NCBI GenBank assembly: GCA_000435275.1
Contig: FR883868.1
Coordinates: 10,665-74,664, forward strand
DNA length: 64,000 bases
Direction of reading: 5' to 3'
DNA from: Clostridium sp. CAG:557
GTDB lineage: Bacteria; Bacillota; Clostridia; Oscillospirales; Acutalibacteraceae
Program-made: the position numbers and the translations under genes
Notes under the pieces: model-generated
What the model was told of the DNA's origin: nothing
The model's input: only the letters and a program-made list of their open reading frames with translations
Databases searched by the model: none
Part shown: positions 1 to 63,802 of the stretch, piece after piece
How positions within the stretch are numbered: the stretch's first letter is position 1
How the letters are laid out: each line of letters begins with the position of its first letter

Positions 1-213
1 ATTTTACAAAAAATACAGTCCATAAAACTACCTCCATAACAAAATTTTAATATTTCCTAAAATCTTTGGCTGGCACTGGCCAAAAATATTTAATAAATGG
101 AATATTTTTGTAAGTTTGCAATAAAATTGCAAACTTACCCATGCACCAAAAAATATATTTTTGGGTGCATGGGGCCAGTGCCTTATCGGGCCACATCAAA
201 ACTTTTCAAAATA

Positions 214-2844
214 CTAATTTGCAAAAGGAATAACCAGCTCATGAACTTTGCCTAACGCCAAATCAATTTTAGAAACATCTTTTATACCTGCCATCGCCAT
301 ATCTTTGCGGCCACCACCATTGCCACCAGTTAGCTTCGCAACTTCTTTGACTAAAGCTCCAGCATTTACGCCATTTTCTAGTGCTATTTTTCCCGCACTT
401 ATAATAATATTCGATTTTTCTGAGCCAATATTAGCCAACACAACAACGACATTTTGAAACCTAGATTTCAAATCGTCGCAAATAAGCTTCAACATGTCAT
501 TATCAAAATTTTCAACTTTAGATACAATTATTTTCAACGCACCAACATCTTTAGCAGAATTGATCAAAGTCTCAACTTTATGCGACGCCATTTCTAAATT
601 TAATTTATTAATTGTTTTTTCGCTGTCTTTAAGCCTATCAACTAAATGCTTGCACTCATTAACCAATTCTTCTCTTTGCTTAGTTTTCAGCACTTTTTGG
701 CAGTCATTAATTAGGTTTAATTCATCATAAAGAAGATTTAAAACTCCCATGGATGTTACTGCTTCGATTCTTCTTACGCCCGACGCCACAGAGCATTCTG
801 AAATAATTTTAAAAACACCTAACTGAGCAGTATTATGAACATGCGTTCCACCGCAAAGTTCTGTAGAAAAATCTCCTACCTTTACAACGCGAACAACTTT
901 CCCATACTTTTCACCAAATAAAGCCATTGCTCCAATTTTTTTTGCATCCGAAAGTGCCATTTCTGTAACATTAACCGGTTCAGATAATAAAATTTCATCA
1001 TTAATTAACTTCTCAATTTCTTTCAAGTCATCCGCAGAAAGTGCCGAAAAATGAGTAAAATCAAAGCGTAATCTGTTCTCATCAACAAGCTGGCCCGCCT
1101 GCTCAACGTGTTTGCCTAAAACTTTTCTTAACGCTGCTTGTAAAAGGTGGGCTGCAGTATGGTTCCTCATAATTTTATTTCTCTTCGCCTCATTAACGTT
1201 AGCAGTAACAGTGTCCCCAACTTTTAACATCCCAGTTTTGACCTCAGCTAAATGCAAATAAGCCCCAGACGCATTTTTTACTGTATCCAAAATCTCAATT
1301 TCAGCATCGTCTGATGTCAATAATCCCGAATCTCCAGCTTGGCCGCCCCCCAGTGCATAAAAAGGTGATTTTTCTAAAATTATTTCAACCTTATCTCCTA
1401 TCACTGTAAAATCGACAAATTTGTCATCTTTAATTATTTTTAAAACATTTGTTCGGATCTCTAGTTTATCATAACCCACAAAATTTGTTGCTTTAACACC
1501 AGAAAAATCCAAATTTTCGGTTGCCCAAGCCTGTGCTTTTGCATAAGTCCTAGCTGCACGGGCTCTATTTTTTTGCTCCAAAAGCAGCTCATTAAATTTG
1601 TTTTCATCAACAGTCATGCCACGCTCCGCCAAAATCTCTTTTGTCAGATCGATAGGAAATCCAAAAGTATCATTAAGTTTAAATGCAATTTCTCCAGGTA
1701 AAATTGAACCTTTTTTCTTATCAATCTCATTGTTTAAAAGTTCTAATCCCTGGTCAATTGTTTTTACAAAATTTTCTTCTTCAACATTTATTAATTTTTT
1801 AATAAAGCTTTCTTTTTGTCGCAATTCTGGATAAGCTTTTTCGTTTTCTTTGATGACTGTTTCGCAAACCTTTGACAAAAATGTACCTTCTATTCCCAAA
1901 AGTCTTCCATGTCTAGCTGCACGGCGCAATAAACGTCTTAAAACGTACCCTCTGCCCTCATTTGACGGCATAACTCCATCGCTAATCATAAAAGTAACGC
2001 TTCTAATATGATCTGTAATTACTCTCAAAGAAACATCTTTTTTAGCATCTTCTCCATATTTTACACCAGAAATTTTGCAAACATGACTCATTATATTTTT
2101 GACCGTATCCACAAGGAATAAATTGTCAACGCCCTGCATAATGCAAGCCAATCGTTCTAGACCCATTCCAGTATCTATATTTTTTCGGTCAAGATTGGAA
2201 TAATTATTTTTGCCGTCATTTTCAAACTGAGTAAATACTAAATTCCAAAACTCTATGTATCTGTCACAATCGCAACCAACTTTACAATTTGGCGAACCAC
2301 AACCATATTCTTCGCCCCTGTCAAAATAAATCTCTGAACAAGGGCCACAAGGGCCAGAACCATGTTCCCAAAAATTATCTTCTTTACCCAGACGAACAAT
2401 TTTAGACGGGTCTACACCAATTTTTTTCGTCCAAATTTCAAATGCTTCATCGTCATCTTCATAAATAGAAACCCATAGTCTATCAACCGGCAACTCTAAA
2501 ACTTTCGTGCAAAATTCCCATGCCCAAGCTGTTGCTTCATTTTTAAAATAATCTCCGAATGAAAAATTGCCAAGCATTTCAAAAAATGTACCATGTCGCG
2601 CAGTAATTCCAACACACTCAATATCAGGAGTTCTAATACATTTCTGGCACGTTGTAACTCTTTTTCGAGGCGGGGTAACTTCCCCTGTAAAATATTTTTT
2701 CATTGGCGCCATTCCAGAATTTATTAGCAATAAGCTATCGTCATTTTCTGGAATCAAAGAAAAACTCTCTAACTTTAAGTGCCCTTTAGATTCAAAAAAT
2801 GACATAAATTTTTCTCTCAATTCGTTTAAACCTGTCCACTTCAT
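214..2844 (-). CDS. alaS: alanyl-tRNA synthetase
   Basis: 877-aa ORF with class II aaRS AlaRS architecture and full-length similarity to AlaRS. ATG at 2844 is preceded by GGAAG. The ORF-track start at 2859 is a TTG further upstream. Confidence 0.95.
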   Translation of the reverse strand: MKWTGLNELREKFMSFFESKGHLKLESFSLIPENDDSLLLINSGMAPMKKYFTGEVTPPRKRVTTCQKCIRTPDIECVGITARHGTFFEMLGNFSFGDYFKNEATAWAWEFCTKVLELPVDRLWVSIYEDDDEAFEIWTKKIGVDPSKIVRLGKEDNFWEHGSGPCGPCSEIYFDRGEEYGCGSPNCKVGCDCDRYIEFWNLVFTQFENDGKNNYSNLDRKNIDTGMGLERLACIMQGVDNLFLVDTVKNIMSHVCKISGVKYGEDAKKDVSLRVITDHIRSVTFMISDGVMPSNEGRGYVLRRLLRRAARHGRLLGIEGTFLSKVCETVIKENEKAYPELRQKESFIKKLINVEEENFVKTIDQGLELLNNEIDKKKGSILPGEIAFKLNDTFGFPIDLTKEILAERGMTVDENKFNELLLEQKNRARAARTYAKAQAWATENLDFSGVKATNFVGYDKLEIRTNVLKIIKDDKFVDFTVIGDKVEIILEKSPFYALGGGQAGDSGLLTSDDAEIEILDTVKNASGAYLHLAEVKTGMLKVGDTVTANVNEAKRNKIMRNHTAAHLLQAALRKVLGKHVEQAGQLVDENRLRFDFTHFSALSADDLKEIEKLINDEILLSEPVNVTEMALSDAKKIGAMALFGEKYGKVVRVVKVGDFSTELCGGTHVHNTAQLGVFKIISECSVASGVRRIEAVTSMGVLNLLYDELNLINDCQKVLKTKQREELVNECKHLVDRLKDSEKTINKLNLEMASHKVETLINSAKDVGALKIIVSKVENFDNDMLKLICDDLKSRFQNVVVVLANIGSEKSNIIISAGKIALENGVNAGALVKEVAKLTGGNGGGRKDMAMAGIKDVSKIDLALGKVHELVIPFAN

Positions 2845-2924
2845 ATAAATCACTTCCAAAAATAAATAAACTCTAGAATATTTGCTACAAAAGCAAAATT
2901 AATTCATAAAATATTCTGATTTAG

Positions 2925-2953
2925 ATTATACCTTCGCTCAAATAAAAAGTCAA
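2925..2953 (-). promoter_or_regulatory. sigma-A type promoter for alaS (TTGACT-17-TATAAT on minus strand)
   Basis: rc of 2948-2953 = TTGACT and rc of 2925-2930 = TATAAT with a 17-nt spacer. The leader to the alaS ATG is only ~75 nt, too short for a T-box. Confidence 0.55.
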
Positions 2954-3014
2954 TTCAGCGCATAATTCAATGTATATTTACAGTTTTTACAAACATAAAA
3001 TTAAGTTGATATAC

Positions 3015-3044
3015 TTGACATTCTTAACAAAAAATTGGTATAAT
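3015..3044 (+). promoter_or_regulatory. strong sigma-A promoter (TTGACA-18-TGgTATAAT) driving the remA-gmk-rpoZ operon
   Basis: TTGACA at 3015-3020 and extended -10 TGGTATAAT at 3036-3044, read directly from the sequence. It is divergent from the alaS promoter. Confidence 0.65.
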
Positions 3045-3082
3045 TTAAGAAATTTATTTTTTCGCACAGACTTTTGCTCATC

Positions 3083-3190
3083 CGCAGTGCGCCCCCCGGA
3101 ATAAACACTAAAAAATATTGTTTATTCCGGTCTGCAACTGCTTTAAAGTTGCAGACGCAGTGCATTGAAAATGTACTGCGGGGGCGCTTC
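3083..3190 (+). promoter_or_regulatory. highly structured 5' leader RNA upstream of remA (three adjacent hairpins enclosed by a GC stem)
   Basis: Perfect 12-bp hairpin 3096-3107/3119-3130. A 9-bp hairpin 3131-3139/3147-3155. A third hairpin 3156-3164/3172-3180. The closing stem GCGCCCCC 3090-3097 pairs with GGGGGCGC 3180-3187. A direct repeat CGCAGTGC (3083-3090 and 3156-3163) allows alternative pairing. No U-tract follows. Confidence 0.4.
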
Positions 3191-3236
3191 TAAGGCAAGT
3201 TCACTCTTTATGTCAGCGAAAAAGGGAGAAATCTTC

Positions 3237-3512
3237 ATGAAATTTATTAATGTTGGCTTTGGAAATATGGTATCTTCAGCAAGAATTGTTACCATCGTAT
3301 GTCCAGATGCTGCTCCGATTAAGCGCGTAATAACCGATGCCAGAAATAAAAACGAGCTAATTGACGCAACTTGTGGAAGAAGAACCCGAGCCGTTATCGT
3401 TACTGACAGCAGACTTATCATACTTTCAGCTCTACAGCCAGAAACAATTTCCAATAGGCTCAAAGGTGACTTCTCAAATGATGAAGGAGATTTAGATTTA
3501 TATGAGCAATAA
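3237..3512 (+). CDS. remA: RemA/YlzA (DUF370) family regulator
   Basis: [12 protein letters not shown]...PIKR motif typical of RemA/YlzA. RBS AAAGGGAGA lies 7 nt upstream of ATG 3237. It sits immediately upstream of gmk as in Bacillus. The ORF-track start at 3165 was rejected. Confidence 0.85.
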
Positions 3513-4104
3513 AGGTTTACTTGTTGTTTTATCCGGTCCGTCTGGTTCTGGAAAAGATACAATTCTTGAACGGCTTGTTAATCTTGACAAAAACATTGTT
3601 AAGTCAATATCCGCTACAACTAGACCTTGCAGAATTGGCGAAGTTGATGGAAAAGATTACTTTTTTATTTCTGAACAGGATTTTTGTAACGCTATATCTG
3701 ATGAAAAATTGCTTGAATATACCAACTACTGTGGAAATTATTATGGAACCCTAAAAAATTTAGTAGAAGATTTACAAAATAATCAAAAAGATGTAATCTT
3801 AAAAATAGAAGTCGACGGAGCTAAACAAATTAAAGAAAAATGCCCTGACTCCTTAAGAATTTTTATATTGCCTCCATCTATGGACGACTTAAAAGATAGA
3901 CTATCTAAACGCGGAACTGAAACACCCGAAAATTTAGAAAAACGTTTGAATCGAGCCAAAGACGAAATAAAATTTTCGTCGGAATATGATTACATAGTCA
4001 TAAACGATGAAGTCGATAAATGTGCTCAAAATATATACTCAATTATAAATGCCGAAAAGTTTAAACTGCATAGAATGAAAAATATTATTAATGAGGTGCT
4101 TTAA
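3502..4104 (+). CDS. gmk: guanylate kinase
   Basis: P-loop GPSGSGKDT and guanylate kinase fold signature. Conserved remA-gmk-rpoZ order. Confidence 0.93.
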
Positions 4105-4105
4105 A

Positions 4106-4309
4106 ATGCAAAAAATATCAATTGATGAAATGTTATCCGGTAAAAAAAGTAGATATTCTCTTGTTATCGGCATAGCAAAACGTGCCAGGGAAATCGCCAG
4201 CAATGCCGAACAAAATGGCAATATTTTGACTGAAAAGCCTGTTAATTTAGCCATAAACGATTTTAAAGAGCATAAATATGAGCTTTTTGAACCTCAAGTC
4301 AACGACTAA
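4106..4309 (+). CDS. rpoZ: DNA-directed RNA polymerase subunit omega
   Basis: 67-aa product MQKISIDEMLSGKKSRYSLVIGIAKRAREI matches RpoZ. GAGGTG RBS at 4093-4098. Confidence 0.88.
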   Translation: MQKISIDEMLSGKKSRYSLVIGIAKRAREIASNAEQNGNILTEKPVNLAINDFKEHKYELFEPQVND

Positions 4310-4337
4310 TTGCCGATTTTACTTCTAAACTACTATT

Positions 4338-6800
4338 ATGAATGAAAAATTTATTGTAAAAGTTGCCGTTGAACATATCGTTTATCACCTTGACAAGTTT
4401 TATGACTATATTGTCCCAGAAGAATTTTGTCAAAACTTGGATGTTGGCTGTAGAGTTTTGGTCCCTTTTGGTGCTGGTAATAAAAAACGTCAAGGAATCG
4501 TTTTGCAGACGGATTTTTCTTCAGATACCTCTAAGTTAAAATCAGTTTTTGCAGTACTGGATGCCGTTCCAATTCTGAACGATGAAATGCTAGAACTTGC
4601 TAAATTCATAAAGAAAAAATATTTTTGTACAATTTATGACGCAGTCAAGCTTATGATTCCCGCCGGCATGAATTTTAAATTACATGAACAGTTTAAACTT
4701 TGTGATAATTTTAACGAATCTTTAGTCTTAAACTGCAACAAAATGGAAAAAAATTTGATTTCATATTTAAAAAATTTTAATGGTTGGGCTTCTAAGGAAG
4801 TTTTGTTGAATAATTTCGGGGCAACAACTCTAAACTGTTTAAAAAATTTAGAAAACAATTCAATAATTCAAAAAAGAGAACTCCAAAAAAGAAATTTATC
4901 TGACTCAAAAGTTAAAATGGTTAAATTAAAAGAACCTTTTGTTTCAATTTGTAATGTTAAAATTACGCCAAAACAAAAAATTATATATGACATTCTTACT
5001 CAAAATTTAAGTGGAATTTCTTTAAAAGAATTATTATACTTTTCTGGTTTTAGTGTTTCTGTTGTGGATAATTTAGTAAAAAAATGTATCGCAGAATATT
5101 TTGAAGATAAAGCTTACAGAGACCCATATAAAAATGTAAAATTTTCATGCTCTTCCAAAAAAATTATTTTGAATGACGAACAAAAGGCTGCTTATAATTC
5201 TATTTTAGAATTATACAAAACTAAAAAATATTGCGTTTCACTCCTTTATGGAATAACGGGTAGCGGAAAAACCTCTGTTTTTATGCGCTTAATCGAAGAT
5301 GTTATTACTGACGGTAGCAATGTTATTGTTATGGTGCCAGAAATTGCTTTAACACCTCAAATGGTTACAATCTTTAAAAGCAAATTTTTTGACAAAGTCG
5401 CAGTGTTTCACAGTGGGCTGTCTCAGGCTGAACGAATGGATGAATACAAACGTGTTAAAGACGGCTTAGTTAATGTTGCTGTTGGCACCCGCTCCGCTGT
5501 TTTTGCGCCATTTGAAAAAATTGGGCTTATTATTATGGATGAAGAGCAAGAATCCAGCTACAAATCCGATGCTACTCCTAGATTTAACGCACGTGAAGTT
5601 GCTAAATTTAGATGTGCATATCATAAAAGTTTACTTCTTTTGTCTTCTGCCACACCTTCCGTTGAAACTTTCTTTTGGGCTAAAAATAAAAAATATAGCA
5701 TAAATATTTTAAAAAATAGATATGCTGGTGCAAAGTTACCTGCAGTCTCCATCGTAGATATGAATAAAGAACAAGAAAGTGGAAATTTTAGTGCTTTTAG
5801 TTCCAAACTAACTGATAAACTGACTCAAAATCTGAATAATGGCAATCAATCTATTTTATTACTCAACAGAAGAGGTTATCACACTTTAGTTTCTTGCAAA
5901 AGTTGCGGACAGGTTTTAATGTGTCCAAATTGTAGCATTGCTTTAACGCTTCACTCTGCAAACAAAAAATTAATGTGCCATTATTGCGGATTTTCTACTG
6001 ATATTACTGATAAATGTCCAAATTGCCATAAGCATCAGTTAAAATATATTGGTGTGGGAACTCAAAAAGTTGAAGAAGATTTGAAAAAATTTTTCCCTGA
6101 AGCTCGTATCTTGCGCATGGACACCGATTCGATGATGTCTAAATTTTCTTATGAAAACAAGTTAAGAGATTTTGCATACGGTAAATATGATATTATGTTG
6201 GGAACTCAAATGGTTGCTAAAGGGTTGGATTTTCCCAACGTAACCCTTGTTGGTGTTTTGTCAGCGGATCAGTCCCTATACAGCGGTGATTTCAAAAGTT
6301 ATGAACGTACTTTTTCTTTGCTTACACAAGTTGTTGGCAGAGCTGGAAGAAATCAACATAACGGATTTGCAGTTATTCAAACTTTTACGCCAGAAAATCC
6401 TATTATCAATTTGGCTGCCAAGCAAGATTATGATTCTTTTTATGCTGATGAGATAATTTTAAGAAAAGCTCTGTTGTATCCGCCTTTTGCAAAACTTTGC
6501 GTCATCGGATTTGTTGGTGAAAAAGAATTTAATGTAATGAATGCAGCAAAATTTTTCTTTGAAATACTTAAAGATTTAATAAAAACCAATTATTTTACCT
6601 TAACTGTTCGAATTTTAGGTCCTTCTCCTGCGCAAATTTTTAAAGTTAATGGTAAATTTCGGTATAAGATAATTATAAAATTTAAAGATGAAAAAATTTT
6701 TAGAAACTTTATCTCTGATGCTTTAATTAAATTCGGTAATTGTAAAAAATTTACCGGCATTTCCACTTTCGTCGATTTGGAACCGGATTCAATTTTGTAA
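4338..6800 (+). CDS. priA: primosomal protein N' (replication restart helicase)
   Basis: Walker A GITGSGKT, DEEQ box, CxxC...CxxC zinc-binding cysteines (CKSCGQVLMCPNC...CHYCG...CPNC) and a C-terminal helicase domain. Confidence 0.93.
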   Translation: MNEKFIVKVAVEHIVYHLDKFYDYIVPEEFCQNLDVGCRVLVPFGAGNKKRQGIVLQTDFSSDTSKLKSVFAVLDAVPILNDEMLELAKFIKKKYFCTIYDAVKLMIPAGMNFKLHEQFKLCDNFNESLVLNCNKMEKNLISYLKNFNGWASKEVLLNNFGATTLNCLKNLENNSIIQKRELQKRNLSDSKVKMVKLKEPFVSICNVKITPKQKIIYDILTQNLSGISLKELLYFSGFSVSVVDNLVKKCIAEYFEDKAYRDPYKNVKFSCSSKKIILNDEQKAAYNSILELYKTKKYCVSLLYGITGSGKTSVFMRLIEDVITDGSNVIVMVPEIALTPQMVTIFKSKFFDKVAVFHSGLSQAERMDEYKRVKDGLVNVAVGTRSAVFAPFEKIGLIIMDEEQESSYKSDATPRFNAREVAKFRCAYHKSLLLLSSATPSVETFFWAKNKKYSINILKNRYAGAKLPAVSIVDMNKEQESGNFSAFSSKLTDKLTQNLNNGNQSILLLNRRGYHTLVSCKSCGQVLMCPNCSIALTLHSANKKLMCHYCGFSTDITDKCPNCHKHQLKYIGVGTQKVEEDLKKFFPEARILRMDTDSMMSKFSYENKLRDFAYGKYDIMLGTQMVAKGLDFPNVTLVGVLSADQSLYSGDFKSYERTFSLLTQVVGRAGRNQHNGFAVIQTFTPENPIINLAAKQDYDSFYADEIILRKALLYPPFAKLCVIGFVGEKEFNVMNAAKFFFEILKDLIKTNYFTLTVRILGPSPAQIFKVNGKFRYKIIIKFKDEKIFRNFISDALIKFGNCKKFTGISTFVDLEPDSIL

Positions 6801-6821
6801 AATCTATGGAGGATGTTTATC

Positions 6822-7295
6822 ATGGCTATAAGAAATGTTGTTTTAGAAGGAGACCCTATTTTATATAAAAAATGTCGGATTGTCAAAAACTTTGATGCTC
6901 GGCTTGCTCAGCTTATTGATGACATGATTGAAACTATGCAATTGAAAAACGGTGTTGGACTGGCTGCTTCTCAAGTTGGCATTCTAAAAAGAGTTGTAGT
7001 TATACAAACCAATCTTGAAGAAAAACCTCTCGAATTAGTAAATCCTCAAATTACCGAAGTTTCTGGAAATCAGGAGGAAGTTGAGGGATGCTTGTCTTGT
7101 CCCGGTGAGTACGGAATTACTAAACGTCCTATGAAAGTCAAAGTTAAGGCTTTTGACCGCTTCGGAGCTGAGCATTTTTATGATGGCGAAGCTCTACTTG
7201 CTCGTGCTTTTTGTCATGAAATTGACCACCTGGATGGCATTTTATTCAAAAATCATGTTATCCGTATGCTGGATGATTCTGAATTGGAAAGCTGA
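6822..7295 (+). CDS. def: peptide deformylase
   Basis: Conserved motifs GVGLAASQVG, EGCLSCPG and HEIDHLDG. ATG 6822 lies 8 nt after GGAGGA. Confidence 0.93.
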   Translation: MAIRNVVLEGDPILYKKCRIVKNFDARLAQLIDDMIETMQLKNGVGLAASQVGILKRVVVIQTNLEEKPLELVNPQITEVSGNQEEVEGCLSCPGEYGITKRPMKVKVKAFDRFGAEHFYDGEALLARAFCHEIDHLDGILFKNHVIRMLDDSELES

Positions 7296-7300
7296 TTTTT

Positions 7301-7423
7301 GGGCACCGCCAGAGCCAACGCTATGCGTTAGCTCTGGCAAATAAAAAAATATTCTTTTGCTTTTGTTTTATGGTAAAATTTTTTAATTTGCCCAATGCAT
7401 CAAAGGATGCATTAGGCGGTGCC
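7301..7423. repeat. GC-rich structured intergenic element with terminal inverted repeats GGGCACCGCC / GGCGGTGCC (copy 1)
   Basis: 9-10 bp perfect terminal complementarity (7301-7310 vs 7415-7423). It encloses hairpin CCAGAGC...GCTCTGG (7309-7337), which is followed by a U-rich tract and acts as a likely def terminator. It also encloses hairpin AATGCATC...GATGCATT (7394-7413). A related element is at 40781-40895. Confidence 0.45.
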
Positions 7424-7467
7424 TCAAAACTATTTAGCTTTTAAAATCTTACCTTTGAGGTGAAAAA

Positions 7468-8391
7468 ATGAAAATTATATTTATGGGAACTCCTGACTTC
7501 GCTGTCCCTTGCCTTGAAAAATTAATAAACTCCGAGCATGAAATAGTCGCAGTTTTTACTCAGTCAGACAAAAAAAAAGGACGTGGATATACATTAACAG
7601 CACCTCCAGTTAAAGAATTATCGCTACAACACGGTATTAAGGTATTTCAACCAGAAACTTTAAAAACTCAAGAAATATCAAATTTAATTACATCACTAAA
7701 ACCAGATTTGATTGTTGTTGTAGCTTATGGTAAAATATTACCAATGGACATCTTAAAAATTCCATTACTGGGTTGTATAAATGTACACGGTTCATTGTTG
7801 CCAAAATATAGGGGCGCCGCACCTATACAGTGGTCAGTAATAAATGGTGAAAAAATTACTGGTGTTACAACTATGTTCATGGATAAAGGTCTTGATACTG
7901 GCGATATGATCTTAAAATCTGAAACAAAAATTGGCAAAAACGAAACTTCAGGTGAACTTTTTGACAGACTAAGCATTATGGGTGCAGAACTTTTAATTAA
8001 GACCTTAAATGAAATTGAATTGGGCAATATTTGTAGAAAAAAGCAAAATGACGAAATGGCTACTTATGCACCTATGCTAAATAAAGATTGGGCAAAAATT
8101 AACTGGAATGACTCTGCAGAAAAAATACACAATTTAGTAAGAGGCTTGAATCCTTGGCCAGTGGCTGTAACTATTTTGGATAATAAAAATTTAAAAATTT
8201 ATAAAACAAAAATTGCCAAATTTATGGGTGGAAATCCCGGAGAAATAAAAAGCGTTAATCCTTTCATTGTGGCTTGTGGAAATAATTCCGCCATCGAAAT
8301 TTTGGAATTACAATTAGAATCCAAGAAACGCTTAAATTCTTCAGACTTTTCTAGAGGTTACAAATTAAAATTAGGTACAATTTTGGGCTAG
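7468..8391 (+). CDS. fmt: methionyl-tRNA formyltransferase
   Basis: N-terminal formyl transferase domain (MKIIFMGTPDFAVP; HGSLLPKYRGAAPIQ) and a C-terminal domain. Conserved def-fmt adjacency. Confidence 0.93.
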   Translation: MKIIFMGTPDFAVPCLEKLINSEHEIVAVFTQSDKKKGRGYTLTAPPVKELSLQHGIKVFQPETLKTQEISNLITSLKPDLIVVVAYGKILPMDILKIPLLGCINVHGSLLPKYRGAAPIQWSVINGEKITGVTTMFMDKGLDTGDMILKSETKIGKNETSGELFDRLSIMGAELLIKTLNEIELGNICRKKQNDEMATYAPMLNKDWAKINWNDSAEKIHNLVRGLNPWPVAVTILDNKNLKIYKTKIAKFMGGNPGEIKSVNPFIVACGNNSAIEILELQLESKKRLNSSDFSRGYKLKLGTILG

Positions 8392-8403
8392 GAGGAAATT
8401 TTT

Positions 8404-9111
8404 ATGTACGGACTTTATTACTTCGATTACTCTTATTTTTTATTTATGCTACCAGCGCTGATACTCTCTCTTTATGCACAAATTAAAGTAAGCAGCACTT
8501 TTGCTAAGTATTCTAAGATAAAAAATTCGAATGGGCTCACTGGATCAGAAGCTGCTTACAAAGTTTTAGCGCAAAATGGAGTCACAAACGTTGCGGTCGA
8601 ACATATTTCTGGAAGTCTAAACGACCATTTTGACCCTCAAACTAATATAATTCGGTTGTCTGACTCCGTCTATTCTTCAAATTCTGTTGCGGCTGTTGGT
8701 GTCGCCGCTCATGAAGCCGGCCATGCAGTTCAGTATGCAAATAATTACGCTCCTATGAAGTTTAGAAGAGTTTTAGTTCCTATCACTAATATCGGTTCAA
8801 CTTTGTCTATACCTTTGATTTTTATTGGCTTATTGCTTCCAATACAATATGATTTTATCGTTAATATTGGAATCGCTCTTTTTAGTTTTGCTGTACTTTT
8901 TCAACTGGTTACTTTGCCTGTCGAATTCGACGCTAGTAGGCGTGCAATTACAACTTTGGAACAGAGTGGTACCCTTTATGACGAAGAACTTATTGGTGCA
9001 AAAAAAGTGCTTAGTGCTGCGGCTATGACTTATTTAGCTGCTACCTTTTCGGCAGTAATGTCTCTTTTTAGGCTAATTTTAATTGCCGGAAATAGACGCG
9101 GTCGAGATTAA
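8404..9111 (+). CDS. membrane zinc metallopeptidase (Zn_peptidase_2 / HEXXH family)
   Basis: HEAGH motif and multiple predicted transmembrane helices. The family is commonly found near fmt. Confidence 0.7.
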   Translation: MYGLYYFDYSYFLFMLPALILSLYAQIKVSSTFAKYSKIKNSNGLTGSEAAYKVLAQNGVTNVAVEHISGSLNDHFDPQTNIIRLSDSVYSSNSVAAVGVAAHEAGHAVQYANNYAPMKFRRVLVPITNIGSTLSIPLIFIGLLLPIQYDFIVNIGIALFSFAVLFQLVTLPVEFDASRRAITTLEQSGTLYDEELIGAKKVLSAAAMTYLAATFSAVMSLFRLILIAGNRRGRD

Positions 9112-39737: not shown

Positions 39738-40751
39738 TTACTTTAATTTATCAATACTTAGCGTCGCAATCGCATTTAAATCCATTGCAGCAACATTGCC
39801 GTTCTGATATTCATAATATGCTTGCGCACCAACCATTGCTGCATTATCTCCACAAAGTGATAGCTCTGGTGAATAAACTCGCCAGTTTCTTTTTTTGCAC
39901 TCTTCTGATAATCTTTTTCTCAACAAAGTATTGGCTGAAACGCCTCCCGCAATAACCAATTTTTTGTAACCAAAATTCTCCGCGGCTTTAATAAAATTGT
40001 TTATCAAGCAGTCTACAACTGCAGCTCTAAACGAGGCGGACATATCTTCAACGTTTATTAATTCTCCTTTTTGTGCTGCATTATGAATTTGATTTATTAC
40101 CGCAGTTTTAAGTCCAGAAAAGCTAAAATCATATTCAGCATTAGACACCGTCGGGCGCGGCAGTTTATAAACATTCTCATTACCTTTTTCCGCTGCTTTA
40201 TCAAGATGAACCCCTCCAGGATATGGCATTCTCATCGTTCGTGCAACTTTATCAAAAGCTTCCCCTGCTGCATCGTCTCTTGTTCGGCCTATCACTTTTA
40301 AGTCTGCATAACCTTTAACTTCAATTATATGGCTGTGCCCACCAGAAACCACTAAACATAAAAACGGTGGTGTCAAATCTTGGTGAGTTATGTAATTAGC
40401 AGCTATATGTGACCTTAAATGATGAACTGGTATCAAAGGCAAGTTTGAAGACAAAGCCAAACCTTTTGCAAAATTTACTCCCACAAGTAAAGAACCAATA
40501 AGTCCTGGGGCGTAAGTTACAGCTATGGCATTTATATTTTTCAAATTGCAATTTGCGGCCTTCAGCGCCTCACTTGTTACACCAGAAATCGCTTCTATGT
40601 GCATTCTAGAAGCTATCTCTGGCACTACTCCACCATATATTTTATGTTCCTCCACCTGCGATGCCACTATTGATGATAAAATTCTTCTTCCATTTTCAAC
40701 CACTGCTGCAGCCGTTTCATCACAAGAACTTTCTATTGACAAAATTTTCAT
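39738..40751 (-). CDS. tsaD: tRNA N6-adenosine threonylcarbamoyltransferase
   Basis: Kae1/TsaD motifs (MKILSIESSCDETAAAV; HHLRSH; SGGVSAN). Confidence 0.93.
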   Translation of the reverse strand: MKILSIESSCDETAAAVVENGRRILSSIVASQVEEHKIYGGVVPEIASRMHIEAISGVTSEALKAANCNLKNINAIAVTYAPGLIGSLLVGVNFAKGLALSSNLPLIPVHHLRSHIAANYITHQDLTPPFLCLVVSGGHSHIIEVKGYADLKVIGRTRDDAAGEAFDKVARTMRMPYPGGVHLDKAAEKGNENVYKLPRPTVSNAEYDFSFSGLKTAVINQIHNAAQKGELINVEDMSASFRAAVVDCLINNFIKAAENFGYKKLVIAGGVSANTLLRKRLSEECKKRNWRVYSPELSLCGDNAAMVGAQAYYEYQNGNVAAMDLNAIATLSIDKLK

Positions 40752-40780
40752 AAAATTTCCTTCCTCACCTGCTAATCTTT

Positions 40781-40895
40781 AGGGGCACCGCGAGAAGTGC
40801 TTTGCACTTCTGTGCACCGATATCATCGGCGCACTTGCCGAGTTCTCAAACCGAAATAATTTTTAATATGAAAAAGAACTCGTCGCGGTGCCCCT
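40781..40895. repeat. GC-rich structured intergenic element with 13-bp terminal inverted repeats AGGGGCACCGCGA / TCGCGGTGCCCCT (copy 2)
   Basis: Perfect 13-bp TIR (40781-40793 vs 40883-40895). Internal hairpins GAAGTGC-TTT-GCACTTC, CCGAT-ATC-ATCGG and CGAGTTC...GAACTCG. Inserted between rimI and tsaD. It shares GGGCACCGC...GCGGTGCCC with the element at 7301-7423. Confidence 0.5.
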
Positions 40896-40914
40896 ACATA
40901 AAAAATACTAAAAC

Positions 40915-41382
40915 TTAATTTAAATATCTCGTCATAATAATCGCATCTTCTTTTGGGTAAGAATAAAAATTTTTTCTTACTCCTGCCGATAAAAAATTTA
41001 ATTTTTGATATAGAGAAACCGCAGAAACATTAGATTTCCTAACCTCAAGAGAAATGAATTTTAATTTTTTATCCTGAGCAAACTTTACAAGTGCTTCTAA
41101 TAATTTCTTAGCAACTCCATTACCCCTATACTGTGGAAAGACTGCAATATTTGTGATGTACCCCTCGTCAAGAACGAAAGTAAAACCAGTATAGCCAAAA
41201 ACTTTTTCATTTTTATCAACAGCTACCAAAAAACTAGCATTCTCATTGTTTATTTCTTCTTTCAACGAAGTTTTCGACCACGGAACAGAAAAACATATTT
41301 TTTCCAACCGCGCAACTTCCTCCAAATGACGTTCTGACATTAATTTTATTTTAAATTCAATCATTTTAGTCTTCACCGACAT
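40915..41382 (-). CDS. rimI: ribosomal-protein-alanine N-acetyltransferase (GNAT)
   Basis: GNAT fold motifs (Q.RGNGVAKKLL). Conserved rimI-tsaD adjacency. Confidence 0.85.
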   Translation of the reverse strand: MSVKTKMIEFKIKLMSERHLEEVARLEKICFSVPWSKTSLKEEINNENASFLVAVDKNEKVFGYTGFTFVLDEGYITNIAVFPQYRGNGVAKKLLEALVKFAQDKKLKFISLEVRKSNVSAVSLYQKLNFLSAGVRKNFYSYPKEDAIIMTRYLN

Positions 41383-41809
41383 TCATAAAATTAGGATTTT
41401 TAACTAAATCGCATAAAGCATTATAAATCTGGTCTCTACAATGTTCATAAATGTCCAAGTTTCCACCAAAGGGATCCAAAATTTGCTCACCTAAAATAAA
41501 AATTCTTTCATTTTGCACCCCTAAATTAATTAAAAAACTGCGATGCACCGTTGTCATCACAACAAATTTATCAATATGACTAAAATTAACGTCAAAAACG
41601 CTTCTCGATACATGATTTTTCAAATCAACGCCTATCTCTTCGCAAACTTTAATTGCATTTTGTGTCGCCTTAGAAATATTATCGGCAGAAATTCCTGCAC
41701 TCAAAATGTTTATATCTTGCAAATTTTTTTCTTGCACAATTTTCTTAAAAATTCCCGCAGCCATAGGGCTCCTACATGTATTCCCAGTACATACAAAAAG
41801 TACATTCAT
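41366..41809 (-). CDS. low-molecular-weight protein-tyrosine phosphatase / ArsC-like (CX5R)
   Basis: MNVLFVCTGNTCRSPMA P-loop CX5R(S) signature and a DP motif. ATG 41809 follows GGAGG. It overlaps the rimI start by 17 nt. Confidence 0.8.
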   Translation of the reverse strand: MNVLFVCTGNTCRSPMAAGIFKKIVQEKNLQDINILSAGISADNISKATQNAIKVCEEIGVDLKNHVSRSVFDVNFSHIDKFVVMTTVHRSFLINLGVQNERIFILGEQILDPFGGNLDIYEHCRDQIYNALCDLVKNPNFMNVGED

Positions 41810-41834
41810 GTGTAAAGCGCCTCCTTCATTCAAT

Positions 41835-44441
41835 TTAAGATTTTGCATCATACCACGTATTCCCAATATTAGCATCCGCAACCAATGGCACTTTCAACTT
41901 CGCTGCATTCTCCATTTCAAATTTTAAAATCTTTGAAACCACTTTTGCTTCAGTTTCTGGAGCTTCAACTATAAGCTCATCATGTACCTGCAAAATCAGT
42001 TTTGCTTTCAAATTCTCTGTTTTCAGGCGTCTGTTAACATTAATCATTGCAATCTTAATAATATCCGCTGCAGACCCTTGTATCGGCATATTTCTAGCTA
42101 CACGTTCTCCAAATGAACGTAAATTAAAATTTGACGACGACAACTCTGGTAAATATCTTTTTCTTCCAAATATAGTTTCTGCAAATTTATTTTCTTTAGC
42201 TTTTTCTATTGTTTGATTCATGTACTTTTCTACTCCAGAATAATGAGCCAAATAATTATCGATGTAATTTTGAGCATTTTTTCGCGAAACACCAATATCT
42301 TTTGCCAAAGAAAAAGCGCTTATTCCATAAACAATTCCGAAATTAACAGCTTTTGCACGGCTTCTCATGAGTGGAGTTACCATATTTTCTGGCATTCCAA
42401 AAACTTGCGATGCTGTTATCTTATGAATGTCCAAATTATTTTTAAACGCGTCAATCATGTTTTTATCGTCCGACAGATGCGCCAAAATTCTTAATTCTAT
42501 TTGAGAATAATCCGCATCAACTAAAACCCATCCTTCTCGTGCACAAAAGTAACGTCTTAATTCTTTTCCGCGTTCTGTTCTGACAGGAATATTTTGCAAA
42601 TTTGGCTCCAATGAGCTTATTCTTCCTGTCCGCGTTTCAATTTGATTAAACCTCGAATGAACTCTTCCGTCCATATCAATAACTTTCAACATGCCGTCAC
42701 AGTAAGTGCTTTTTAATTTTGAAAGCGCCCTGTACTGTAAAATCAATTCCACAACCGGGTGAAAGTCACGAATATTCTCAAGAACCTCTGCATTTGTTGA
42801 ATAGCCACTCTTAGTCTTTTTGCCTTTTGGCAGTTTCATCTCCTCAAAAAGAATCAGTCCCAGCTGTTTTGGCGAATTTATATTGAAGTTTTTGCCCACA
42901 ATTTTAAATATTTTTTCCTGAATCTCTTGCAGCTCTTCTTGCAATTTCTCTCCATAAGCTTTTATTCCACTTGCATCAACTAAAAATCCCGTCATTTCCA
43001 TATCTGCTAAAACCATCGCTAAAGGAATTTCAATATTTTTAAGCAAATTTTTTTGAGTGTTATTTTCAATCTCCACAGTAATTTTTTCACACAATTCGTT
43101 AAACTCTGCAACACTTCGTGCAAAGTCCAAGTATTCATTTTGCTCACAATTCACACTGACTTTATTTACGCAGAACTCTTTAGTTAACGTTTCAAAATCG
43201 TAATTTTTGCTTGACGGATTAAGCAAATACGCCGCTAAAATTACGTCCATCTTAACGTTTCTCACACAAATGTTTTGCCGTTGCATCGCCTCATAAAACG
43301 GCTTTACATCGTAAGTTCTCTTCAAAATTTGTTCATTTTCCATAACCAACTTAACAAAATTTTTGTATTTATTTAAATCAGACAAAATATAGACCTTACT
43401 ATTCCAGTAAAACCCCAAGCTTATTGCTTGTCCAGGTTGATAATTCACTAAAAAATCGAAAGTCTTACTCGTACTTATTACTTTTTCTAAATTTTCTAAA
43501 GACTCGTCAAAAATAACATCTACACTTTTTGTTAAAGCTTTTTCAGTTTCTTTCTCTGCGACTTCTTTTAAGCCCAGCTTATTTAAAAGTGAAAACATTT
43601 CAAGCTCAGAAAGCATTTTAGAAACTTCGCCTTCATTTATTTTCTTAGGAATATAACCGCTCAAATTTAAATCTATCGGCACATTTTTAACAATCGTTCC
43701 AAGGTATTTGCTCAAAAAAGCATTATCCTTCGACGCAAGCAGCTTCTTTTTAACGCCGTCTTTAATATCAATCTTATCTATGTTATCGTAAATATACTCG
43801 ATTGAACCAAACTTCCGAATCAAATCACCCGCGCCTTTTTCACCTATTCCAGCAACGCCTGAAATGTTGTCTGATGCGTCCCCTTGTATAGCTTTTATGT
43901 CAATTAACTGTTTTGGAACTACTCCATAAACCTCTTGTATTTTTTCTTCATCATACAAAGTAACTTCCGGTTTTCCAAATTTTGTCACAGCAATTCTAAC
44001 AGAAACATTTGGAGACACCAGCTGCAAACTGTCTCTATCTCCTGTTGCAATAACGCATTTTTCGCCGGAGTTTTCACAAGCAAGTGCCAAAGTGCCCAAT
44101 ATATCATCTGCCTCATAGCCTTCTTTTTCCACCAGTTTATACCCCATATTAATAAGCAACTTTTTTAAAACGGGAAATTGTGCGGCAAGTTCTTCCGGCA
44201 TACCTTTCCGATTTGCTTTGTATTCACTGTAAGCTTTATGTCGAAATGTAGGTGCTTTCATGTCAAACGCAATAGCCACCGCATCTGGATTAATTTCCTC
44301 ATTTAACTTGCTTAACATTGTCAAAAATCCATATATCGCATTTGTATAAAAACCTTTTTTGGTCGTTAAAAGCTTAATGCCATAAAATGCCCGGTTAAAT
44401 ATGCTATTTCCATCTAAAACAAGTAATTTCATCGATAACAC
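41835..44441 (-). CDS. polA: DNA polymerase I
   Basis: 868 aa. 5'-3' exonuclease domain, an inactive-type 3'-5' domain and pol A family motifs (DYSQIELR, KAVNFGIVYG, QVHDELI). Confidence 0.95.
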   Translation of the reverse strand: MLSMKLLVLDGNSIFNRAFYGIKLLTTKKGFYTNAIYGFLTMLSKLNEEINPDAVAIAFDMKAPTFRHKAYSEYKANRKGMPEELAAQFPVLKKLLINMGYKLVEKEGYEADDILGTLALACENSGEKCVIATGDRDSLQLVSPNVSVRIAVTKFGKPEVTLYDEEKIQEVYGVVPKQLIDIKAIQGDASDNISGVAGIGEKGAGDLIRKFGSIEYIYDNIDKIDIKDGVKKKLLASKDNAFLSKYLGTIVKNVPIDLNLSGYIPKKINEGEVSKMLSELEMFSLLNKLGLKEVAEKETEKALTKSVDVIFDESLENLEKVISTSKTFDFLVNYQPGQAISLGFYWNSKVYILSDLNKYKNFVKLVMENEQILKRTYDVKPFYEAMQRQNICVRNVKMDVILAAYLLNPSSKNYDFETLTKEFCVNKVSVNCEQNEYLDFARSVAEFNELCEKITVEIENNTQKNLLKNIEIPLAMVLADMEMTGFLVDASGIKAYGEKLQEELQEIQEKIFKIVGKNFNINSPKQLGLILFEEMKLPKGKKTKSGYSTNAEVLENIRDFHPVVELILQYRALSKLKSTYCDGMLKVIDMDGRVHSRFNQIETRTGRISSLEPNLQNIPVRTERGKELRRYFCAREGWVLVDADYSQIELRILAHLSDDKNMIDAFKNNLDIHKITASQVFGMPENMVTPLMRSRAKAVNFGIVYGISAFSLAKDIGVSRKNAQNYIDNYLAHYSGVEKYMNQTIEKAKENKFAETIFGRKRYLPELSSSNFNLRSFGERVARNMPIQGSAADIIKIAMINVNRRLKTENLKAKLILQVHDELIVEAPETEAKVVSKILKFEMENAAKLKVPLVADANIGNTWYDAKS

Positions 44442-46476: not shown

Positions 46477-46597
46477 CACCTAAAATTTAAAATTAATATT
46501 ATGTATTGATAAGTTTATTTTTGATGTTTATTTTTATTAAAATCCGGTAAAAATATTTTTATCAAAACTATAATAAAATTTTCGGAGTGTGAAAAAG

Positions 46598-46969
46598 GTG
46601 ACTATAAAACGTGGGGACATCTTTTATGCTGATTTAAGTCCTGTTGTAGGCTCAGAACAAGGTGGAATTAGGCCGGTTTTAATCGTTCAAAATGACGTCG
46701 GAAACAAATTCAGTCCAACAGTAATCGCAGCCGCTATCACAAGTCAACATTCAAAGGCCGACCTTCCTACTCACATACAACTTCAAGCTCATGGATGTGG
46801 TCTTTCTAAAGATTCCGTAGTACTGTTGGAGCAAATTCGAACTCTCGATAAAAAACGTTTAAAAGAAAAAATGGGCTGTCTGGATACTTTTGCAATGAAT
46901 TTGGTAGACAAAGCGCTGTCTATAAGTTTCGGTCTTTTAAATAACTACGCTATAAAAGAAGCTACATAA
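46598..46969 (+). CDS. mazF: PemK/MazF-family endoribonuclease toxin (EndoA/NdoA-like)
   Basis: Near-colinear similarity to Bacillus EndoA ([39 protein letters not shown]...LPTH....LLEQIRT.DK.RL). GTG start at 46598 lies 10 nt after GGAG. No antitoxin ORF is adjacent. Confidence 0.85.
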
Positions 46970-61831: not shown

Positions 61832-62299
61832 TTAAACTGTTTTTATGTCTATACCATATTTATTTAACCAAAAATCAAGTTGAATTATATATGCCATAAT
61901 CTGTGCTGCTCCCATCAGCTGCCCATACCATGGTGAAGATATCTCCTCTGGATGTTTCATAACTTCATGCACACCATCATGGTTTAAAATTTGACTCAAT
62001 AACGAGCTTTCATTTTTTAAAATTTCATTAACTTTTTTACTAACTAATTTCATATAAACCGGATTATGCGTCTTGGGATATGGACTCTTTTTTCTAAATA
62101 CAATTTGATTTGGTAAAATTCCTTTCATCGCTTCCCTCAAAATTCCTTTTTCTCTCCCTTGATAATTCTTTATTTCCCATGGCATATTGTAAGCATATTC
62201 AACTATTCTATAGTCGCAAAACGGCACTCTGACTTCCAAACCGTTATACATGCTCATTCTATCTTTTCTGTCAAGCAAAAACACAAAAGAAAAATATGC
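61832..62299 (-). pseudogene. asnB: 3'-terminal fragment of a glutamine-hydrolysing asparagine synthetase (AsnB/AsnO family), truncated by an integrated element
   Basis: 150-155 codons matching only the C-terminal Asn_synthase region (LLDRKDRMSMYNGLEVRVPFCD...LPNQIVFRKK). The N-terminal ~400 aa, including the glutamine amidotransferase domain, are absent. The reading frame is open up to the recombinase stop codon at 62300-62302. Confidence 0.75.
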
Positions 62300-63802
62300 T
62301 TATTTGTAGACGATATCTAACCTATCATCGTATATAAGAACCTTTTTGATAAAGGTATTTGCAATTAATTTTTTATCATCAAAAGATAAGTTATCCCAAT
62401 CGGTCAAGGTTGCTCGTATAACATCGTTAGATATATCTTCAGAATTTTTATTTTTAATTATATTAAGTTGACCTTGTATTGTATTTCGCTGTTGTTCTAA
62501 TTGTTCAACTTTTTCATTAATATATTTCATGACGTTCTCATTAGCCATAGAAATTTTATTAATTAAATTTTCTATTTCATCCTGAACTTTTTTTAACTGA
62601 ATTTTCAATTTGTTTTTTTCTTTTTCAAATTTCATGTTCCTTTCTATTTTTGTAAATTCAAAATTTTCGATATAGCGAATTAAATCATGTTTGACACTTG
62701 TCTCTATATCATCAAATGTGATTGTTTTTTTTCGTTCAAAACAAACCTTACTTTTCCTTCCTCCACAATTAATATAGCGTTTTCCATTTATTTGACCATT
62801 TACAACTGATACACCTAAACCACAATATCCACACTTTGTTAAACCAGTTAGCCATGTATGTGAACCTTTACCGCTGTTGCTGATTGGTTTATTTTTATCT
62901 AGCTCATATTGTACTTCAAGCCATAAATCAGCATCTATAAATCCTTCATGCAGGTTCATTTGGACAATTTCACCGTCATATGTTGAAAATTTGGCTTTGG
63001 TTTTTCCTTCTCGTTTTGAATACACAGTGCACCCATATAAACCCACAAAATCATCTATAGATTGGTTAATTTTAGCTCCTCTACTTTCAAGATATGTGTA
63101 AACATCAGCATTTGCACGAACATAAACAGGATTTCTTAAAATACGTCTTACAGATACGTTTTGAAAATTTTTGTCTCTGTTTGTTTTGTATCCCTTTTTA
63201 TTAAGCTGTTTAACAATGTCGCCTAAACTTTTAATCTTAGCATATTCTTCATACATAAACTTGACAATTTCACTTTGGCATAAGTCAGCTTCAAGAATAT
63301 GAGTATTGATATTGTCAATGATTCTAGGCACTTTTTTATAACCAAACGGTGCAACTCCTGCAAGAAATAAACCCTTTTTCCCACGTTCATAAAAATTATC
63401 TGTAACTCGTTTTTTTATCATGTTTCTTTCAAGCTCTGCAAAAACCATAATTATTTGTAAAGTAGCTTTTCCCATTGCTGTACTTGTATCAAACTGTTCG
63501 CTGCATGATTCAAATTCAACACTATGCTTTTCAAAGTCGCTATAAATGTCAATAAAGTCTTTCAATGATCTACTTATTCTATCTACTTTATAAACAATAA
63601 CTTTTGCAATATTTCCTTTTTCAATATCTTTTAGTAATCTAACAAAACCCGGTCTTTTAGTATTTGCTCCTGAATATCCTTTGTCTTTATAAACTTTAAA
63701 ATCAGTATTTTTAAAAAGTCGTTTTTTGCAGCACTCCTCTTGCTGTTCAATACTTATACTATCCTTTTTGTCTATTGATTGTCTGCAATAAATAGCTATC
63801 AT
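62300..63802 (-). CDS. large serine recombinase (resolvase/invertase-type catalytic domain + recombinase domain + zinc ribbon + coiled coil)
   Basis: N-terminal catalytic serine context (IYCRQSIDKKDSIS; RISR). Recombinase domain. CxxC...CxxC zinc ribbon (CGYCG...CGGRKSKVC). Coiled-coil C-terminus. 500 aa. Confidence 0.9.
   Translation of the reverse strand: MIAIYCRQSIDKKDSISIEQQEECCKKRLFKNTDFKVYKDKGYSGANTKRPGFVRLLKDIEKGNIAKVIVYKVDRISRSLKDFIDIYSDFEKHSVEFESCSEQFDTSTAMGKATLQIIMVFAELERNMIKKRVTDNFYERGKKGLFLAGVAPFGYKKVPRIIDNINTHILEADLCQSEIVKFMYEEYAKIKSLGDIVKQLNKKGYKTNRDKNFQNVSVRRILRNPVYVRANADVYTYLESRGAKINQSIDDFVGLYGCTVYSKREGKTKAKFSTYDGEIVQMNLHEGFIDADLWLEVQYELDKNKPISNSGKGSHTWLTGLTKCGYCGLGVSVVNGQINGKRYINCGGRKSKVCFERKKTITFDDIETSVKHDLIRYIENFEFTKIERNMKFEKEKNKLKIQLKKVQDEIENLINKISMANENVMKYINEKVEQLEQQRNTIQGQLNIIKNKNSEDISNDVIRATLTDWDNLSFDDKKLIANTFIKKVLIYDDRLDIVYK

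Follow-up and report, generated by a model that had tools for sequence, protein, structure and literature searches.

A 64,000-nucleotide stretch of contig FR883868.1 from Clostridium sp. CAG:557 (the window) contains a 115-nt island between the genes rimI and tsaD, here termed element B. Both flanking genes are encoded on the minus strand and match their NCBIfam models above cut-off (Table 1), in line with a preliminary description that had placed the island inside a rimI-tsaD operon, on the transcribed minus strand and upstream of the tsaD ribosome-binding site. The same description had reported a perfect 13-bp terminal inverted repeat (TIR) and three hairpins, and both are borne out by sequence and fold: AGGGGCACCGCGA at 40781-40793 is matched by its exact reverse complement TCGCGGTGCCCCT at 40883-40895, and the repeat extends to 14 bp when the flanking T/A is counted. 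No second match to the 13-mer AGGGGCACCGCGA is present in the 64-kb window when 2 mismatches are allowed (chance expectation 0.19). The GC content of the island (~0.49) exceeds the window-wide value (0.34), a contrast that is real but only moderate. Element B ends 29 nt upstream of the tsaD ATG. A subclade of gut Acutalibacteraceae has a small family of such elements, each 100-135 nt long, and element B is its type B member.

Table 1. Coordinates of element B, its helices, the flanking genes and the other elements. Positions refer to the window unless a relative's locus is named.
Feature	Position	Strand	Remarks
tsaD, immediately downstream of element B	39738..40751	-	TIGR03723, above cut-off
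tsaD ribosome-binding region, GGUGAGGAAGG	40759..40769	-	11 nt downstream of element B
Element B (type B), closing stem and three hairpins forming a four-way junction	40781..40895	-	rimI-tsaD spacer; covariance model 113 bits
Closing stem P1, transcript 5' strand, AGGGGCACCGCGA	40883..40895	-	core GGCACCGCG identical in 8/8 type B sequences
Closing stem P1, transcript 3' strand, UCGCGGUGCCCCU	40781..40793	-	
Hairpin P2, 9-bp stem CGAGUUCUU/GAGAACUCG, 26-nt AT-rich loop	40839..40882	-	5/11 pairs compensatory
Hairpin P3, 10-bp stem GUGCGCCGAU/AUCGGUGCAC, 3-nt loop	40812..40834	-	6/10 pairs compensatory
Hairpin P4, 8-bp stem AGAAGUGC/GCACUUCU, 3-nt loop	40793..40811	-	6/8 pairs compensatory
rimI, immediately upstream of element B	40915..41382	-	TIGR01575, above cut-off
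Element A (type A), def-fmt spacer	7296..7430	+	stem core GGCACCGCC/GGCGGUGCC; three hairpins including the conserved AUGCAUC...GAUGCAU
Element C (type C), between the alaS stop codon (214) and the start of the HIT-family gene (~23)	68..192	-	stem GGCACUGGCC/GGCCAGUGCC; three hairpins
Element D, same architecture	3084..3192	+	unrelated stem GCGCCCCC/GGGGGCGC; leader of the remA-gmk-rpoZ-priA-def-fmt operon
L152x, four-way junction with unrelated stem	L152 2668-2786		between gltX and glnS
L135x, four-way junction with unrelated stem	L135 3932-4028		between a ferredoxin gene and a methyltransferase gene

The 126-nt segment folded as RNA has a minimum free energy of -65.7 kcal/mol on the minus (transcribed) strand (z = -10.3) and of -60.4 kcal/mol on the plus strand (z = -9.9). 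The stem and three hairpins form on both strands, and equal stability is reached by 0/200 shuffled sequences. The fold persists, as one dominant structure, when 50-70 nt of flank are included on each side; it also holds under DNA energy parameters. The tsaD ribosome-binding site is not sequestered, as no pairing with element B is seen in the fold including the flanks. A GC-corrected fold scan, using sliding windows of 130 nt over the 64 kb, identified element B as the strongest minus-strand outlier of the entire window. The arms measure 8-15 bp, most hairpin loops have the minimum length of 3 nt, and there are almost no junction nucleotides. Stacking of the closing stem on an adjacent hairpin would yield a continuous helix of 21-22 bp. 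A comparison within the species revealed a spacer without any differences.

The four top outliers of the fold scan are elements A, B, C and D, all of which consist of a closing stem around three hairpins. The preliminary description had treated the island as a second copy of the def-fmt element. The relationship stands, but the number was an undercount, with at least two more such elements at ~68-192 and ~3084-3192. Elements A and B have the 8-mers GGCACCGC/GCGGTGCC as their ends, which occur at no other locus in the window, and a stem core GGCRCYGSC is common to types A (def|fmt), B (rimI or a second acetyltransferase gene|tsaD) and C (alaS|hit). A covariance model derived from the tsaD-type copies alone still detects the type A element; its scores on type A copies are weak (38.6 bits in L142 and 18-24 bits in the others, where L numbers designate individual loci), and this detection shows types A and B to be related. 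The type C stem of the window is GGCACTGGCC/GGCCAGTGCC, and the corresponding stems in the window, L161 and L207 are GGCACTGGCC, GACACCGGC and GGCGCCGGC, respectively. Element D is located ~35 nt downstream of a near-consensus promoter (TTGACA-17-TGGTATAAT, at 3014-3048); no orthologue of it was flagged in L161 by the fold scan. Two further four-way junctions, L152x and L135x, were seen in loci of relatives. The methyltransferase gene next to L135x has the tRNA m6A37 methyltransferase TrmN as its best match, far below cut-off.

A closing stem with three hairpins is present in 19/19 elements examined, and this architecture is commoner than the shared ends. The elements terminate 29-75 nt ahead of the next start codon, and the family members occupy transcribed spacers that separate co-directional genes of one operon. 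The operon ends in the window carry ordinary AT-rich hairpins with U-tracts. One further repeat was observed at L207 (JAZQHA01, Acutalibacteraceae), where a GC-rich unit of 102 nt is repeated 3.3 times in tandem at positions 739-1071, upstream of alaS, with 93% matches and internal inverted repeats; similar diverged units continue upstream to ~530.

The helices of the element are under structural constraint. A covariance model was built from six type B sequences, and eight, these six included, were aligned to it; such an alignment leans towards the model structure, with which a plain alignment and single-sequence folds agree. Standard pairs make up 94.7% of the cells in this alignment. Both sides have changed in 21 of the 43 type B pairs, compared with 10.2 ± 2.0 in shuffles (0/500 reach 21) and 1-5 in slid controls, and RNAalifold reports 17 compensatory pairs on the plain MAFFT alignment. 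The MAFFT alignment is poor for type A and for the L195 copy, for which the model-based alignment and per-sequence folds were used. The hairpins of L195 are entirely different in sequence and length, to the point of being unalignable, and the copy still scores 57.6 bits. Nine stem-core pairs (GGCACCGCG/CGCGGTGCC) are invariant in type B. The type A copies have the same core, save for one mismatch in L203 and a core 1 bp shorter in L204, and one type A hairpin (UAUGCAUC, a 3-4-nt loop and GAUGCAUA) is kept in sequence. Beyond the core, lineage-specific complementary flanks (GCGC, UUUUG, UA or an AT-rich run) lengthen the stem by 0-11 bp. Among 7 type B copies, 5 fold more stably on the transcribed strand.

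The distribution of the family was determined from the one 64-kb window and from orthologous loci of relatives, of ~4-8 kb each, fetched via TsaD, Fmt and AlaRS homologues. NCBI names the TsaD of the window itself as Acutalibacteraceae, and the exact host TsaD protein occurs in >1,100 assembly blocks. Type B elements are found upstream of tsaD in the window, L141, L193, L195, L135 and L152, in the same orientation in 6/6. Type A elements occupy def|fmt in the window, L161, L203, L204, L205 and L142, with the same orientation in 5/6 and an inverted copy in L142. Type C occurs at alaS|HIT-family gene in the window (68-192), L161 and L207. These related copies in other Acutalibacteraceae confirm that the island belongs to a repeated family bounded by inverted repeats, as had been proposed. 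Copies with the A/B core number two in 64 kb and one per 4-8 kb locus of a relative. Orthologous spacers are empty in L194, L196 and L197 (tsaD), in L206 (fmt) and in L208 (alaS). In a pattern scan of one genome per bacterial species, all true relatives came from metagenome-assembled genomes of Clostridia, most of them named Acutalibacteraceae, and neither the genome nor the metagenome scans showed a copy away from the def|fmt and tsaD junctions. These scans required the exact stem core and the AT run, and hence miss diverged copies and other sites.

In a neighbour-joining tree of a single protein (TsaD), the empty-site lineages L196 and L197 fall outside, the element bearers form one clade and the empty L194 is sister to L195; this placement fits one gain and one loss. 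TsaD is ~77% identical among the element-bearing lineages, yet the sites are the same and the surrounding spacer is unalignable. Gene content at the locus varies. The outgroups and L194 have rimI-tsaD, the window and L141 have rimI, element and tsaD, and L195 has rimI, a second GNAT-family acetyltransferase gene (GNAT2), element and tsaD. L135 and L152 have GNAT2, element and tsaD, with GNAT2 in tandem in L152 and no rimI seen in either. GNAT2 is absent from the window, L141 and L194.

L193 has the order rimI, element, GNAT2, element and tsaD. Its extra acetyltransferase gene (Acetyltransf_3, RimJ/RimL-like; L193 705-2000) lies between two near-identical type B copies, which differ at two positions and whose similarity ends exactly at GGGCACCGCG...CGCGGTGCC. 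On its left, copy 1 has a flank matching that of the window copy, and copy 2 has one on its right; hence, the window arrangement is what recombination between two such copies would leave. The element copies look like a recombination substrate for loss of the extra acetyltransferase gene. Traces of past mobility or recombination comprise the stem core at three junctions, the near-identical pair of L193 and the inverted def-fmt copy of L142. The family probably derives from a stem-bounded unit that duplicated, in which case it would have been mobile or recombinogenic in the past. In summary, it is otherwise inherited vertically, with traces of an old duplication, one inversion, one duplication and few losses.

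The family is new and previously unannotated. No Rfam model reached its gathering score, either in the window or in 5 loci of relatives; nothing was found at E <= 1 in window positions 1-8500, and only chance-level matches at E <= 10 in 40700-40960. ARAGORN detected no tRNA or tmRNA in the window. A literature search for the core sequence returned only primers and unrelated matches, and none of the Breaker-lab papers checked on discovery in GC-rich intergenic regions refers to a motif of fmt, tsaD or rimI. Plasmids and phages yielded only chance AT-rich matches by blastn. In viral contigs, the bare 16-base end pattern gave only high-GC noise among the matches listed, and a more specific pattern gave 5 matches, all unrelated. 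A scan of Joint Genome Institute metagenomes returned only two same-species copies and a hairpin repeat of soil Acidobacteria.

That high-copy soil repeat (AGAGGTGGGCACCGCCCACCGG...) has the string GGGCACCGCC in common with the element; it forms a single long hairpin and was judged unrelated. It looks like a separate family resembling REPINs or miniature inverted-repeat transposable elements (MITEs). The unit, AGAGGTGGGCACCGCCCACCGG...CCGGTGGGCGGTGCCCACCTC of ~105 nt, was seen at 8 loci of a soil Pyrinomonadaceae genome and on numerous contigs from soil metagenomes (L124, L128, L129, L131, L136, L143, L146, L151 and many of L164-L192).

Several other candidates were rejected. No promoter was detected inside the element by scan at either locus (rimI|tsaD and def|fmt); TGGTAAAAT, seen by eye in the AT-rich loop of the def-fmt copy, is not conserved in relatives and was not found by the scan. 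An attC site was dismissed, the terminal RYYYAAC/GTTRRRY cores being absent from ends that read GGCACCGC/GCGGTGCC and no integrase being present in the window annotation. attC-like cores do occur in a CCAAC...GTTGG hairpin; this is an inner hairpin rather than the ends, and it gives no fit in most copies. A possible similarity to Tn3-family ends (GGGG-N-ACCGCCAG, Tn4430) was dropped; only ~12 outer bases would match. Membership of the REP/BIME/REPIN type, which has hundreds of copies of an imperfect 20-40-nt palindrome and a RAYT gene, was set aside on account of low copy number and the lack of a transposase-like gene among the annotated window genes.

The gene order polA, low-molecular-weight phosphatase/ArsC-family gene, rimI and tsaD (window 41366-41881; L193-L197) is kept clade-wide. 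Neither tsaB nor tsaE was seen within the whole 64-kb window, where a low-molecular-weight phosphatase-family gene and polA lie upstream of rimI, as the preliminary description had remarked for the missing pair and the phosphatase gene. The same order is found in outgroups that lack the element; the missing tsaE/tsaB is therefore unrelated to it. Elsewhere in the window, a PemK/MazF-type toxin gene follows directly after a terminator (46589-46969). A serine recombinase gene (500 aa; resolvase, recombinase and zinc-ribbon domains) is located at 62300-63802, 21 kb from element B, and adjoins a 150-aa fragment that matches only the C-terminal part of asparagine synthase; the two together span 61832-63802. 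This suggests that a mobile element or prophage has integrated within or alongside a truncated asnB at the right end of the window.

We tentatively interpret the element as an intercistronic RNA module for mRNA processing or stabilisation, with doubt slightly outweighing belief; RNA processing is nonetheless the most plausible function among those considered. The element would be transcribed within the polycistronic mRNA and fold into the four-way junction, which would serve as intercistronic punctuation. An endoribonuclease recognising GC-rich helices may cut at or next to the structure, a candidate being an RNase Y-type enzyme or a double-strand-specific RNase acting on the 21-22 bp stack of stem and hairpin; such a length is approximately that needed by double-strand-specific RNases. 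The hairpins left behind would guard the upstream message at its 3' end and the tsaD message at its 5' end against exonucleases, which would permit unequal amounts of the two gene products. The invariance of the 9-bp stem core furthermore suggests involvement of a sequence-reading factor, which would recognise this core. That the position is kept at ~77% TsaD identity, in a spacer that is unalignable and with flanks that lengthen the stem, favours retention by selection.

A precedent is provided by the Ruminiclostridium cip-cel operon, in which cleavage, probably by RNase Y, depends on GC-rich stem-loops in the spacers, and these also protect both products (PMC10311766). Element B similarly is a GC-rich, stable structure in the spacer of co-transcribed genes in a host of the class Clostridia. 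In contrast, the cip-cel structures are single stem-loops with no shared sequence, no closing stem enclosing three hairpins and no cross-genus family (PMC10311766); cleavage in the present case is predicted. In our assessment, the element would work most like such operon-spacer processing stem-loops, while it looks most like BOX, REP/BIME/REPIN and Correia/ERIC repeats.

A number of observations weigh against a processing role. Across the 19 elements, G-U pairs amount to 23 on the transcribed and 21 on the other strand (~2.6% of pairs), and the transcribed strand is more stable in just 10/19; given this lack of strand asymmetry, a role as RNA and a role as DNA are not told apart. Near-perfect Watson-Crick palindromes with 3-nt loops suit DNA palindromes equally well, and an invariant sequence within a perfect duplex is more typical of DNA than of RNA recognition. 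The inverted copy of L142 is tolerable only if loop sequences and hairpin order are irrelevant. The element is also dispensable, being absent from L194 and L208 inside the clade, and both cleavage and stabilisation are steps that we infer.

The main competing explanation is a selfish or neutral palindromic DNA repeat, of a MITE-, REP- or BOX-like kind and devoid of host function, which we regard as unlikely but worth serious consideration. Such a repeat would have reached a small number of permissive operon spacers in an ancestor and have since become immobile, its hairpins being kept perfect by within-strand template switching at near-palindromes rather than by selection on RNA. The inverted-repeat ends common to three different junctions, the near-identical L193 pair around the acetyltransferase gene with similarity stopping at GGGCACCGCG...CGCGGTGCC, the inverted L142 copy, the losses in L194 and L208, the absence of strand asymmetry with 2.6% G-U pairs and the minimal 3-nt loop in most hairpins are all as expected from a DNA repeat. 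However, no target-site duplication is present: among 11 copies examined there is no direct repeat >2 bp abutting both ends, and the flanks often extend the inverted repeat. Copy number is very low, plasmids, phages and viral contigs gave no matches, and the flanks evolve to lengthen the stem. Persistence at the same sites (~77% TsaD identity) is hard to square with bacterial deletion bias unless selected. An active MITE, as had been suggested for the island, is not supported. The perfect TIR of 13-14 bp and the core GGCACCGC/GCGGTGCC common to A and B resemble those of a MITE, but the duplication is missing at all 11 copies, just 2-3 diverged copies occur per 64 kb, and these sit at the same junctions across genera. 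The TsaD tree, which fits an ancient gain and one loss better than repeated insertion, also speaks against activity, as does an outer stem that co-varies with the flanks rather than forming a fixed transposase end. Correia- and ERIC-type MITEs have terminal inverted repeats, measure 100-150 bp, are co-transcribed and vary in presence between relatives. In contrast to the element, they form one long hairpin, are flanked by target-site duplications (TA for Correia) and occur as numerous near-identical copies, whereas the element has no duplication, diverged but paired hairpins and a fixed position across genomes. BOX elements of Streptococcus pneumoniae are modular intergenic repeats with pairing ends, internal hairpins, co-transcription, >100 copies and conserved modules. 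Paired ends, modular internal hairpins and transcription with the neighbours are thus shared with element B, in contrast to its 2-4 copies per 64 kb, its mere 9 bp of conservation and its fixed positions across genera. REP, BIME and REPIN sequences are GC-rich palindromes found outside genes and inside operons, and a role in mRNA stability has been proposed for them; REPINs are inverted unit pairs that fold into hairpins (PMC3116915, PMC3333891). REP-type repeats are, however, of high copy number, are made up of one or two short palindromes marked by a conserved 5' tetranucleotide, and are accompanied by a RAYT gene; none of these features was seen here.

The remaining explanations are less probable still. 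The elements could constitute a shared regulatory RNA for tRNA-acting enzymes, with a common factor binding the closing stem and junction; this factor could be tRNA itself, a tRNA-processing enzyme or, via a cloverleaf-like decoy, the encoded enzymes. Its targets would be fmt, tsaD and alaS/hit and, via related elements, gltX/glnS and the TrmN-like methyltransferase gene. We consider this improbable. Five of six independent junctions do border tRNA-acting genes (fmt, tsaD, alaS, gltX/glnS and, weakly, the TrmN-like methyltransferase), and the 9-bp stem core is common to two loci across lineages (with the type A exceptions L203 and L204), but the association was noticed post hoc in sampled regions rich in translation genes, and queH, dus, metG, argS and rlmN of the window lack such an element. 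Furthermore, helices of 8-15 bp with almost no junction nucleotides are unlike the arms of a tRNA, none of which ARAGORN detects, the match to TrmN falls far short of its cut-off, and the stems of D, L135x and L152x are unrelated. We give equally little credence to a new cis-acting RNA class, in which a perfectly paired four-way junction with an invariant 9-bp closing helix read by a dedicated trans factor would tie the expression of these tRNA-acting enzymes, within one clade of gut Clostridia, to a common signal, for example tRNA-processing capacity. A DNA recombination site, either an inverton or an attC-like cassette site for gain and loss of the acetyltransferase gene, appears more doubtful again. 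In gut bacteria, invertons (invertible promoters) lie upstream of genes as short segments enclosed by inverted repeats, and inverted repeats here bound ~90 bp, with the opposite orientation in L142; the L193 acetyltransferase gene between direct copies, and its absence from the window, are also as expected from recombination. Opposite orientation is, however, seen only between species (L142 vs five others), this being the one inverted copy, and orientation is constant in 6/6 type B and 5/6 type A lineages. The element has no internal promoter and no adjacent recombinase gene (the serine recombinase at 62300-63802 is 21 kb off), its ends lack the attC cores, and neither mechanism needs the conserved internal hairpins. 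Least probable of all, and in our view highly unlikely, is a transcription attenuator, the terminator-antiterminator switch controlling tsaD that had been put forward for the island. A very stable structure does lie just upstream of tsaD, and hairpin clusters have been proposed as terminators even without U-tracts (PMC8355165). In opposition to this, no U-tract or terminator-like site was found at rimI|tsaD or def|fmt, where terminator- and promoter-like sites are no commoner than chance; there is no alternative fold, competing flank pairing or alternative pairing of the ribosome-binding site, no conserved unpaired nucleotide able to sense a signal and no Rfam match. Ordinary U-tract terminators are used elsewhere in the window.

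The family illustrates that elements bounded by inverted repeats can resemble a MITE in a single window though they are old, position-fixed and structurally constrained. The host is an abundant human-gut bacterium, and the element resides inside operons for essential translation functions, namely initiator-tRNA formylation, t6A tRNA modification and alanyl-tRNA synthetase. Synthetic biology in Clostridia could make use of it as a natural 'operon punctuation' part. The conserved junction and strong covariation, together with the lack of an Rfam match, make the element a concrete candidate for a new structured-RNA family.

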